64,000 nt of DNA from an uncultured bacterium (GTDB taxonomy: Bacteria; Desulfobacterota_D; UBA1144; Nemesobacterales; UBA2774): positions 802,017-866,016 of the forward strand of contig CAVPJU010000010.1 in assembly GCA_963705505.1 (NCBI GenBank), given 5' to 3'. A program made the position numbers. Shown here piece after piece: positions 15,001-18,000 of this stretch. Position 1 is the stretch's first letter; each line of letters begins with the position of its first letter.

Positions 15001-18000
15001 TACAATATCGATCGTGGAATCACTGATCGGACTTCTCCAGTATATCGCCAGCGGGACTAAGGTGCCGGCGTCAGGCACTTACATCAATCCCAACCATTTC
15101 GCGGGACTGCTGATCGTAGTTATCCCTTTATTTTTAGGATACATACTATATCGTGGCACCAATAAAAATGCCGGATCAAACCGGCGGGAAGACAGAATAA
15201 AAATTCTATTTTCCGCTCAATTTCTCCTGCTGTTCGCAACGTCCCTTATGGCTATAAGCTTAATAGTCGCACAATCCCGGGGAGCGATATTCTCGTTTGT
15301 GGTCTCAATTATAATCTTTTATATATTGATCTCCCGCAATAAAAAAAGCGGTTCGATAAAATTATTTCTGGGCATATTTTTTGCGATTGTAATCCTCTAC
15401 TCGATATGGATAGGATTGGACCCGGTAATTGAAAAATTTTCGGATACGACAAAAGAACTCCCTAATCGTACGTACATATGGAAAGATTCGCTTAACCTTA
15501 TAAAAGACTTTCCTATTTTAGGCACAGGTCTAGGGAATTTTAACCTGGCTTACACGCTCTATAAAAAAGAAGCGTTTTGGCCCTATGTCTACGACCACGC
15601 TCATAATGATTATATCGAACTTGCCGCAGAGACCGGGTTGGTAGGATTCATCTTGGTTCTATGGGCATTGGTAGCGTTTTTTAAAACCGCGTTGTCTGAC
15701 GAGAGAAATTTCTCTCCGAACCGGGACCCTCTCAGGTATTATCTCTTCCTGGGGTGCCTGAGCGGGATGCTGGGTATGCTGACTCACGCTATTACAGAAT
15801 TCGATTTCCAAATACCGGCTAATACGTACTACTTCGTATTCTTATTGGGACTGTCGAGCAGCATGTCGAATGTGCTAATCGGAAGGAAGAAATAATTAAA
15901 ACGATTCGTTTCTGAACCCCTCGCAGCCGTCGGCACCCGGCTCGAACTGACCGTCTTCTACGATTTTGTATTTTCGGTCCTTGCCATCGTTTGCCTGTCC
16001 AAACAGTCCTTCAGCGCAAGTTCCGAAATATACCCCATATCGATCAGAATCTGCCCGACTCTTGCCGCCTTGATTTTTTTGACATTGTAATGCCTCTTCC
16101 AGTTGATCGACCGTGATCACGTTGGCGGCGAGCATTATTTCACCCAGCAAGTAATCATTTTTATTGTTTCTGAACGCCCAATTGGCGCTTGAATTCACGA
16201 ATACCTGCAAGTTCAGAAAGTCCTTCAATTTTTGTTCGGTAATATAACCCTTTTCAATCAGAATCTCCCCGACTTTCCCGCCCCATTTCTCCTGATGCTT
16301 AAGCGCTTCCTCAAGCTGCCCTTCGTTAATAACCCCGGATTCCAGTATGACCTGTCCTATCAGCTTATCTATACGCTTTTCCTTGCTGTCCCAATGGAGT
16401 GTGAACGTATACCATATAGAAGCAAAAATAAGCTTTAAATCGAGCCAGAAGCTCTGATTATAGATATAAATCAAATCATAGCGGAGCTTGTTCCTGGGAT
16501 GAGTATTATAATGTCCATGGACCTGGGCAATCCCGGTTAAGCCCGGCTTGACACGGAGCCTGTGATCAAAACCCGGGATCATTTTCCTGAACTCATTAAC
16601 CAATTCCGGCCGTTCGGCTCTGGGGCCGACGAAGCTCATGTCGCCCATAAGGATATTGAATAGTTGAGGAAGTTCGTCGAGCTTCGTTTTTCTGAGGAAT
16701 TTGCCGACTCTCGTGATCCTGTAATCCTTCTTATAAGCCCAGACAGGACCCGTATTGAGCTCCGCATTCTTGATCATGGAACGAAACTTGTAAATCTTAA
16801 ACCTTTTCCCGTTCACACCCAATCTTGTCTGAGAGAAAACTATGGGAACTCCGTCTTCCAGATAAATAGCTACAGCGACCAAAATCCAAACAGGCAAAGA
16901 AACTATGATACCTATAAGGGAAAACAAAACGTCGAAGGGCCTCTTTAAAATTGGCTCTCTTGTAGGGTAGGAATTATAATCCGTCAGCGAATACCTTCCG
17001 CCCAACTTGTTTATGCCGTTGCCGTAGCTTTTGAACATCTTTTCCAATTCCGCTCAATTTACAAGTTATTTGTAATCCATTACCAAACAAAGCGACACTC
17101 CCGCAGACAACACCCTGCGGTTCTATCAATATGATACATTTAAATCAAAGCTTCGGTTCAAGAAATTTTATGACCCAATAAAGGAATTTTATGACCCCAT
17201 TAACAAATGACAACCTTCATGCCAAACGCTACAGCCATAATAACCCACCGGATTTATTTAATAATAAGTTTATACTAATTACATGCTTATACAAGAGTTG
17301 TCGGGAGATACAATCCGAAAAGACAATCTTCGTACATAATGTAATATTGACCAATCCGGCCATGTCGATAATATGATCTATTTACGCGTACAAGCCTCTA
17401 TTTTGTTCGACTTCCATAACAAAATTTAAGAAGTACTGTTGGGTTAAATGACATCCATACGCTTTCTAATCAGTTTATTTTGCATTATAATTCTTTGAGG
17501 TATTATCACCGTCTTTCAATCAATCATGAACCATATCACAAAGAAAGTAAAGAATTACCCGGAGAAAACTGACAAAAAACCCAATATGGGTAATCCCGAG
17601 CGGGACAATGTCGGTTTTTCGAAAATAGAACCCTTTGCAGTACGCGAGCCCAGCGTAGGGGTTTCATTAAGACTTAGAGAGCTCCTGGAATATCACGAGC
17701 TTATTTATTTCCTTGTTTGGCGGGACCTTAAAGTACGGTACAAGCAAACCGCACTGGGTGTGGCCTGGGTAGCTATTCAACCGTTAATGACTATGATTGT
17801 GTTTACCATATTTTTCGGGAATCTCGCAAAAGTCCCTTCCGACGGACTGCCCTACCCTGTTTTTAGCTTTACGGCCCTATTGCCGTGGCAGCTCTTTGCT
17901 AACGCCTTAAACACCTCAAGCAACAGCCTTGTCAATAACCGCGACTTAATAACTAAACTCTATTTCCCCCGGTTAATTATTCCGTTGGCGTCGATAATAG

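Follow-up and report, generated by a model that had tools for sequence, protein, structure and literature searches.

We found that the initiating enzyme of the large polysaccharide locus in the window (the whole stretch of DNA that was analysed, 64,000 nucleotides) is a phosphoglycosyl transferase (PGT) with a C-terminal tail of two tandem MshEN_N units. Each of these helical bundles has the fold and the contact residues of a c-di-GMP receptor and very probably binds one molecule of the ligand. We lean towards the hypothesis that c-di-GMP, bound to the tail, gates priming, probably by switching it on. Close relatives retain this sensor at the corresponding place on an enzyme of unrelated fold with an equivalent role, and the target of the signal is therefore probably the first step of the pathway. 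The two parts are known ones, in a combination that we did not find in print, and the natural domain swap makes it more than an accidental fusion. The earlier note on this DNA had proposed c-di-GMP control of the first committed step of polysaccharide synthesis. This interpretation is partly supported: the architecture, its conservation, the probable indel and an MshEN_N module with intact ligand-contact residues all stand, and control by c-di-GMP is predicted from the sequence.

The priming enzyme and its locus

The gene lies in a minus-strand open reading frame spanning 15896-17047, and translation from the ATG at 17038 to the stop at 15896 gives 380 residues. The features of the locus are as follows.

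9771-15895, plus strand: wza, wzc, a gene for a TPR/carbohydrate-binding protein and a Wzy_C-family gene, convergent with the PGT gene; the same order stands beside both PGT classes
15896-17038, minus strand: PGT-(MshEN_N)2 fusion gene, 380 residues as assembled, those after about 326 being out-of-frame read-through
15958-16063, minus strand: second motif of MshEN_N unit 2 and true C-terminus (stop 15958-15960), in another frame in this assembly
16062-16064, no strand: one base more than in the contigs of three other runs, shifting the frame; probably an assembly indel
16064-16150, minus strand: first motif of MshEN_N unit 2 and spacer (residues 297-325), in frame
16205-16363, minus strand: MshEN_N unit 1 (residues 226-278), two 24-residue motifs starting LIG and KVG
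16403-16945, minus strand: monotopic PGT catalytic domain (Bac_transf, residues 32-212), from Pfam, a PglC-like fold and motifs
17526-32959, plus strand: wzm, wzt, two methyltransferase genes, a deacetylase gene, GT2/GT4 genes and a second Wzy_C gene, divergent from the PGT gene
35158-35246, minus strand: c-di-GMP-I riboswitch ahead of a secreted CBM96 / Pro-Thr linker / GHL15-like gene, at the far end of the locus

The catalytic part is a Pfam Bac_transf domain (PF02397) over residues 32-212 (219.9 bits against a gathering score of 27, E 2.3e-65), and it is followed by the NCBIfam c-di-GMP motif model NF053729, which matches in two stretches (84.3 bits against a cut-off of 38), best at residues 227-278 with E 3.6e-24. 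This agrees with the earlier note, which had described a Bac_transf with two C-terminal MshEN units and a match at 227-278 with E 4e-24. The Pfam scan gave no match for the tail, and because Pfam misses it, the relatives bear just the name 'sugar transferase' in databases. The catalytic motifs KFRSM at 84, an Asp-Glu dyad (DELPQ) at 121 and GPR at 138 are present, in line with the set of Asp-Glu dyad, KFRxM and GPR that marks small monotopic PGTs, as aligned to PglC. The protein has a single hydrophobic segment (residues 37-55), no N-terminal four-helix bundle and a PglC fold, and PglC is the nearest solved structure in both sequence and fold (Foldseek E 3e-14). The enzyme is thus a small monotopic PGT, predicted to transfer a sugar 1-phosphate to polyprenyl phosphate. 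In small monotopic PGTs the N- and C-termini are both cytoplasmic, so the tail would be able to meet c-di-GMP. PglC of Campylobacter (8E37, 8G1N) shares the fold, the one hydrophobic segment, the Asp-Glu dyad, KFRxM and GPR, but it is a catalytic domain alone, whereas the protein here adds about 140 residues of predicted sensor tail.

A tblastn search of the genome found one other monotopic PGT, tail-less and part of another wza/wzc cluster (contig C7), and no match for a WecA-type domain. This leaves the tailed enzyme as the sole priming enzyme of the locus. Its convergent neighbour, called wzy in the earlier note, does lie at that position, but it encodes a protein of the Pfam Wzy_C (O-antigen ligase) family, whose polymerase role is putative. 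With regard to a Wzx/Wzy pathway, Wza, Wzc and two Wzy_C genes are present, Wzm/Wzt stand where the flippase would be expected, and no family match for a Wzx flippase was found among the window ORFs scanned. A promoter scan gave 7 sites, as compared with 4.4 ± 1.7 in shuffles, which is not informative.

The same tail on two classes of enzyme

The fusion with the monotopic PGT (match over about residues 1-326) occurs in 9 of 33 family genomes, its own included, from five genera and at 61-80% identity, the same counts as had been given before. Four motifs are present in all eight monotopic relatives aligned; their intactness had been noted correctly, and their number had been put too low, at six. 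A profile of the tail found it in 14 of the 33 family genomes (Ca. Dadabacteria) and in 15 of 120 genomes in the phylum. Nine of the 14 carry it on the monotopic PGT and five (G004, G005, G009, G024 and G025) on a polytopic, Glycos_transf_4 / WecA-like PGT of about 495 residues. These WecA-type carriers, in five further genomes, had escaped the earlier note. The tails of the two enzyme classes are 55% identical, with an HH probability of 100 over 139 columns, and the alignment of the monotopic and WecA-type profiles reported no match outside the tail.

Two full units are present in 31 of the best 120 of 7965 matches to the monotopic profile, one unit and a remnant in two, and a single unit in eight; two units were found in 20 of the best 120 of 3347 matches to the WecA-type profile. 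The best 150 representatives at 50% identity include one double-tail cluster (P0025) and one single-tail cluster (P0245), and a Pfam scan of 30 of these 150 found no c-di-GMP family. Single-unit monotopic forms stand at the base of the double-tail clade and also in a separate group (quick tree, 109 rows), which suggests that the monotopic fusion is the older one. Tail-less best matches to the WecA-type part, among the matches listed, bear alphaproteobacterial names where they are named.

The gene order wza, wzc, TPR/CBM, Wzy_C, convergent PGT-tail, divergent wzm and wzt was found in 11 of the 12 loci compared, comprising all five WecA-type loci and six of the seven monotopic ones; the exception, G033, belongs to another family. 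In trees of 12 rows each, the enzyme-class label changes once on the tail tree (support 100/99), whereas at least three changes, forced by the starred branches, are required on the wzc and Wzy_C trees. Therefore, two alleles alternate at one site. As read from these trees, the WecA-type fusion has a single origin, and in two genera it is now exchangeable in position with the monotopic allele; the alternation may reflect allele exchange or an old polymorphism, and the trees fit either. A wzc orthologue at the level of at least 66% is present in 19 genomes: the tail is found in 14 of these, a tail-less PGT occupies the site in G032 and G030, and the contigs of the remaining three (G001, G003 and G006) stop short of it. 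In G032 (92% complete), a tail-less PGT cassette with matching flanks lies on one contig. Since a tail-less PGT is found at the same site, the tail is an add-on that is dispensable for this type of locus. The contig end G008:C16, a mixture of monotopic, polytopic and tail fragments, is a probable mis-assembly (7% contamination) and was not counted.

The swap of the catalytic part, with the tail kept, suggests selection on the pairing of a priming step with a c-di-GMP sensor. That a single tail serves two folds without relation to each other is explained by recruitment or clustering, mechanisms independent of the fold, no less well than by a specific contact in direct allostery. The main rival to gating, which the swap between unrelated folds favours, is that the tail binds c-di-GMP but acts as a tether, recruiting or clustering the enzyme with a partner (Wzc, a glycosyltransferase or a local diguanylate cyclase) or setting its stability or position, with the turnover of the purified enzyme unchanged. 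The tail survived a move between monotopic and polytopic enzymes without detectable homology, as an effect independent of the fold would allow; the GGKxGE turn of unit 1 and the adjacent Glu/Tyr are invariant, beyond the known ligand contacts; and NfrB is co-localised with the cyclase DgcJ, according to the available text of PMC8669469. However, the partner is hypothetical, and the linker between catalytic domain and tail, which is short and of fixed length within the double-tail monotopic clade, suits direct coupling. We regard a mere tether as fairly unlikely and prefer the hypothesis that the tail gates the priming step.

If the WecA-type allele were catalytically weakened or dead, the swap would say nothing on selection for regulated priming. 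The Asp of the FxGD motif is replaced by Asn in all 20 tailed WecA-type proteins, in contrast to the tail-less relatives, 93 of 100 of which keep Asp. The equivalent Asp is essential in MraY, and the adjacent-Asp motif was found in 17 of the 20 (three rows are N-terminally partial). Given this Asn, the sequences leave the activity of the tailed WecA-type proteins less than assured. Against an inactive enzyme, NxxDGxDG is kept in 19 of the 20 and the His-rich motif in all 20, and the gene stands alone at its site, with intact downstream transferases in G004. E. coli WecA reportedly stays active with the same Asp-to-Asn change; a literature search for this activity found no paper. We consider a weakened or dead allele unlikely.

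As a separate observation, the related enzyme P0068 has a PilZ-like tail (E 2.4e-4, just under cut-off, in a single sequence), which matched PilZ clusters in the ESM Atlas at 0.83-0.84 and is a lead only.

Reading frame and predicted ligand site of the tail

The frame is broken after about residue 326, and the fourth motif runs on in another frame to the stop at 15958-15960, as the earlier note had seen. Its explanation by a probable assembly indel is borne out by an extra base near 16063, which is absent from one contig in each of the three runs, out of four compared, that cover the site (16062-16064); one of these, the X2 contig, shows only 2 further differences in 278 letters. P0008, which is 98% identical over 324 residues, has four motifs, all in frame. 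The same assembly has further frame breaks in the 8909 gene (broken relative to the ORFs of 12 of 12 relatives, in one of 34 position bins besides the PGT gene), in the EF-G gene, whose last domain is out of frame, and in the CBM96/GHL15 gene. The extra base is probably an assembly error, the compared contigs coming from runs other than the source sample's. It is improbable that the frameshift is a real mutation of this genome only, leaving the strain with one complete and one broken unit: the runs compared are indeed not the source reads (best share of words 0.30), and single-unit forms occur in nature, so that a one-unit protein could work, but the three contigs without the base, the intact frame of P0008 and the other frame breaks of the assembly all argue for an error.

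Apart from unit 2 of this assembly, which the frameshift splits, the units follow a two-motif layout of two 24-residue motifs and a 5-residue spacer (53 residues), with two units in each of 51 proteins. These 51 double-tail proteins (31 monotopic and 20 WecA-type, 204 motifs) are close kin picked with a profile of these same units, and the counts are not independent; two of 11 single-unit rows, with 52-residue units, were left out of the motif count. Gly3 and Gln24 are invariant (204 of 204 motifs), Leu17 and Leu21 nearly so (203 and 200), and surface positions beside the contact residues vary at 2-3 bits. A profile search of the tail also supports the four-helix bundle fold (E 4.7e-10). The MshEN_C / T2SSE_N part (PF05157) had no match; the tail is all-helical and ends after unit 2. 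The NCBIfam NfrB model NF008411 matched weakly and on the tail only (26.6 bits against a cut-off of 1170), and the fusion protein, having no GT2 catalytic domain, falls outside NfrB.

Position 1 of the motif is Arg, Lys or Leu in 159 of the 204 motifs (Arg in 14, Lys in 67 and Leu in 78), including 119 of the 124 from the monotopic class; in 40 of the 80 WecA-type motifs the residue is Trp, Ile or Val, none of which belongs to the R/K/L set that has been tested. Position 2 is mostly Ile, Val or Leu; Ile/Val are commoner than Leu, the consensus residue, and 7 of 20 WecA-type second motifs have Thr there. Position 10 also departs from the consensus. The earlier note was right that the first Arg is often Lys or Leu, but the doubt on binding that it drew from this does not hold. 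In the available text of Neissner 2024 (PMC11731258), the position-1 consensus is extended to R/K/L, with a KD of 6 nM for the K/L domain of PilF and 2 nM for K167L. Since Lys or Leu at this position is a published high-affinity variant, the departure predicts tight binding and not its loss.

An AF2 model was made of P0008, whose frame is intact, with a 110-row alignment (mean pLDDT 85.5, pTM 0.67); an 8-row alignment gave pLDDT 45 and was set aside. The model shows two four-helix bundles with a flexible stretch between them. A tail unit superimposes on ligand-bound MshE (5HTL) with an rmsd of 0.7 over 54 columns (Foldseek probability 1.00, with E only 0.034 for so small a part), and on PilF GSPII-B (8PDK) with an rmsd of 0.6. 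The MshEN_N of V. cholerae MshE and GSPII-B of T. thermophilus PilF have in common with the tail the 53-residue two-motif unit, the fold and the Gly/Leu/Leu/Gln contacts, and GSPII-B also shares K/L at position 1. In contrast, the MshE and PilF units are N-terminal on pilus ATPases, with a C-terminal subdomain adding a contact, whereas those here are C-terminal and tandem on a PGT, and their binding is predicted. A search of the ESM Atlas with P0008 returned generic Bac_transf clusters only, and a predicted P0008 homodimer with four c-di-GMP scored 0.00, which counts neither for nor against.

In the AF2 model, a helix at residues 218-233 begins five residues past the last helix of the catalytic domain and extends over the start of the first motif; confidence is modest at residues 211-230 (pLDDT 72-73). 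An extended helix 1 is known from both a binder and a non-binder in PilF: apo GSPII-B has it, yet binds tightly, its turn unwinding on ligand binding, and in GSPII-A, according to the available text of Neissner 2025 (PMC12002112), an extended and capped helix 1 blocks the site, so that this domain is non-binding even with restored motifs. It is improbable that the tail is, like GSPII-A, a non-binding MshEN-like helical interaction module in which c-di-GMP has no direct part; the published case of intact-looking motifs without binding, the extended first helix of the model and the consensus departures at positions 1, 2 and 10 would allow it, but Gln24, which contacts the ligand backbone and not the bundle core, is invariant with Gly3 in both enzyme classes, the helix of apo GSPII-B is no bar to binding, and the degenerate second motif of GSPII-A (available text of PMC11731258) is not a trait of these tails.

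Proposed control of priming by c-di-GMP

In the mechanism that we prefer, each of the two four-helix bundles of the cytoplasmic C-terminal tail would take up one c-di-GMP, and binding would gate the priming step, most likely turning it on. Activation is the most likely direction by analogy with NfrB. Helix 218-233 of the model offers a plausible coupling route: the first helix of unit 1 there reaches back across the start of the motif to where the catalytic domain ends; its turn would unwind on ligand binding, as in PilF, and the tail would loosen from the enzyme.

The host genome encodes five GGDEF domains, two of them with an intact GG[DE]EF, and two HD-GYP motifs; no EAL domain was found in this 93.6% complete genome. 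There are three other NF053729 proteins. Of the 10 c-di-GMP-I riboswitches in the genome, one is that at the far end of the polysaccharide locus. Among the matches listed, eight relatives have a c-di-GMP-I riboswitch 23-32 kb from the PGT on the same side, and since the tail-less G032 is one of them, the riboswitch supports c-di-GMP control of the locus and not of the tail. GGDEF is present in 32 of 33 family genomes and does not discriminate tailed from tail-less ones.

NfrB of E. coli, as described in the available text of PMC8669469, is also a glycan-building membrane enzyme with a C-terminal MshEN module, but it has a single, full MshEN domain and works as a processive GT2 synthase, whereas the enzyme here is the priming PGT of a lipid-carrier pathway, with two MshEN_N bundles and no MshEN_C. 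The earlier note had allowed that the supplement of PMC5013675 (Wang 2016) might list the architecture; its Supplementary Table 4 lists GT2 fusions and the EpsG kinase, and no fusion of Bac_transf or Glycos_transf_4 with MshEN. EpsG of Methylobacillus (MshEN_N - AAA_31 in that table) likewise has MshEN_N on a component of an exopolysaccharide pathway, but it is a chain-length tyrosine kinase with one N-terminal unit, not a priming enzyme. Initiating PGTs under post-translational control are known from EpsZ-EpsW of Myxococcus xanthus and CapM-CapB1 of S. aureus, according to the available text of Schwabe 2025 (PMC12802240). In these cases the control is exerted by a receiver protein that is phosphorylated and separate from the PGT, or by Tyr phosphorylation; no second-messenger receptor is fused to the enzyme, and EpsZ is a large dimeric monoPGT, unlike the small monotopic PGT here. 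According to the same text, the post-translational controls known for PGTs are Tyr phosphorylation and EpsW, such control of the Wzx/Wzy pathway is incompletely understood, and direct control by c-di-GMP belongs to synthase-dependent pathways; for the fusion of regulatory domains to small monoPGTs it refers to O'Toole 2021, which may bear on novelty. No PGT-MshEN fusion was found in literature searches by titles and abstract starts, with subscription journals mostly outside their coverage, and a word search of the review PMC8461298 gave no match.

The tailed enzyme would provide a compact single-chain test, with 359 residues, a standard UMP-release assay and a ligand site with known knock-out mutations. 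The natural WecA-type twin allows a test of the tail as a portable switch, which would be of interest to glycoengineers. Priming draws on a limited pool of undecaprenyl phosphate that is common with cell-wall synthesis, and is therefore a logical place for a switch. We suggest, as a possibility that falls somewhat short of probable, that a portable C-terminal double MshEN_N directly gates priming in lipid-carrier (undecaprenyl phosphate) pathways, on both unrelated PGT superfamilies, and that priming is a control point of general use, to which evolution has repeatedly fitted different receptors (MshEN_N here; the PilZ-like tail on P0068). If this is true, direct control by c-di-GMP would extend beyond synthase-type systems.

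Tail variation and other C-terminal domains of the priming transferases

In all 20 tailed WecA-type enzymes (polytopic transferases with the same MshEN tail; P0121-P0139 and P0141), Asn replaced the Asp in FxGD, and the fourth MshEN motif began, at position 1, with Trp. In a second family (L052, G033:C16:3610-4665, and P0026), the two tail units were almost identical to each other, suggesting that one unit was duplicated recently and separately in this family.

We found that P0068, a related monotopic transferase whose two closest neighbours in the tree are tail-less, has a PilZ-like C-terminal domain (residues 251-352), with the RxxxR and NxGxGG motifs present and a Pfam score of 21.8 bits against a cut-off of 22.5. 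A single same-clade monotopic sequence, P0036, showed a Wzc-type kinase domain where the tail would be, a join that is possibly a mis-assembly. The source genome encodes two further MshEN-type proteins, L033 (G000:C6:174162) and L034 (G000:C3:256647). As judged by eye from the sequences, L033 has an acidic linker and resembles a receiver at its C-terminus, and L034 resembles a receiver at its N-terminus and contains a DnaJ-like region.

Frame breaks and assembly quality

Two additional genes of the window are interrupted by frame breaks:
8909-9659, gene for a conserved exported protein of ~270 residues
62340-63719, EF-G gene

These breaks point to an indel-prone assembly. At the contig end holding L051 (G008:C16:5930-7648), pieces of a monotopic gene, a WecA-type gene and the tail were intermixed, and two strains were probably mis-assembled there.

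Polysaccharide loci and their c-di-GMP-I riboswitches

The following features were recognized:
window 33070-35032 (-), secreted CBM96 / Pro-Thr linker / GHL15-like gene
window 35158-35246 (-), c-di-GMP-I riboswitch, 78.5 bits
window 36720-38354 (-), exported protein of 544 residues, coiled coil at the N-terminus and porin-like beta-barrel at the C-terminus (weak Porin_2 match only)
G000:C7:3817-25758, second polysaccharide cluster (L127, L128)

The CBM96/GHL15-like gene, which lies downstream of the riboswitch, is split over three frames in the present assembly. Eight relatives also have a riboswitch, at a distance from the priming transferase gene similar to that in the window. The porin-like protein gene adjoins an FMN-binding gene.

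The second cluster contains wza, a split wzc, a flippase-like gene, a tail-less priming transferase and a dehydratase-like gene, as labelled from ORF starts without family scans, and has a c-di-GMP-I riboswitch immediately upstream; in G001, G008 and G009 there are also riboswitches next to the second wzc.

At window 9771-32959, Wza/Wzc and two Wzy_C-family genes occur together with a Wzm/Wzt ABC exporter, and no match to Wzx was found among the scanned ORFs. This is a hybrid export layout, which is kept across the family.
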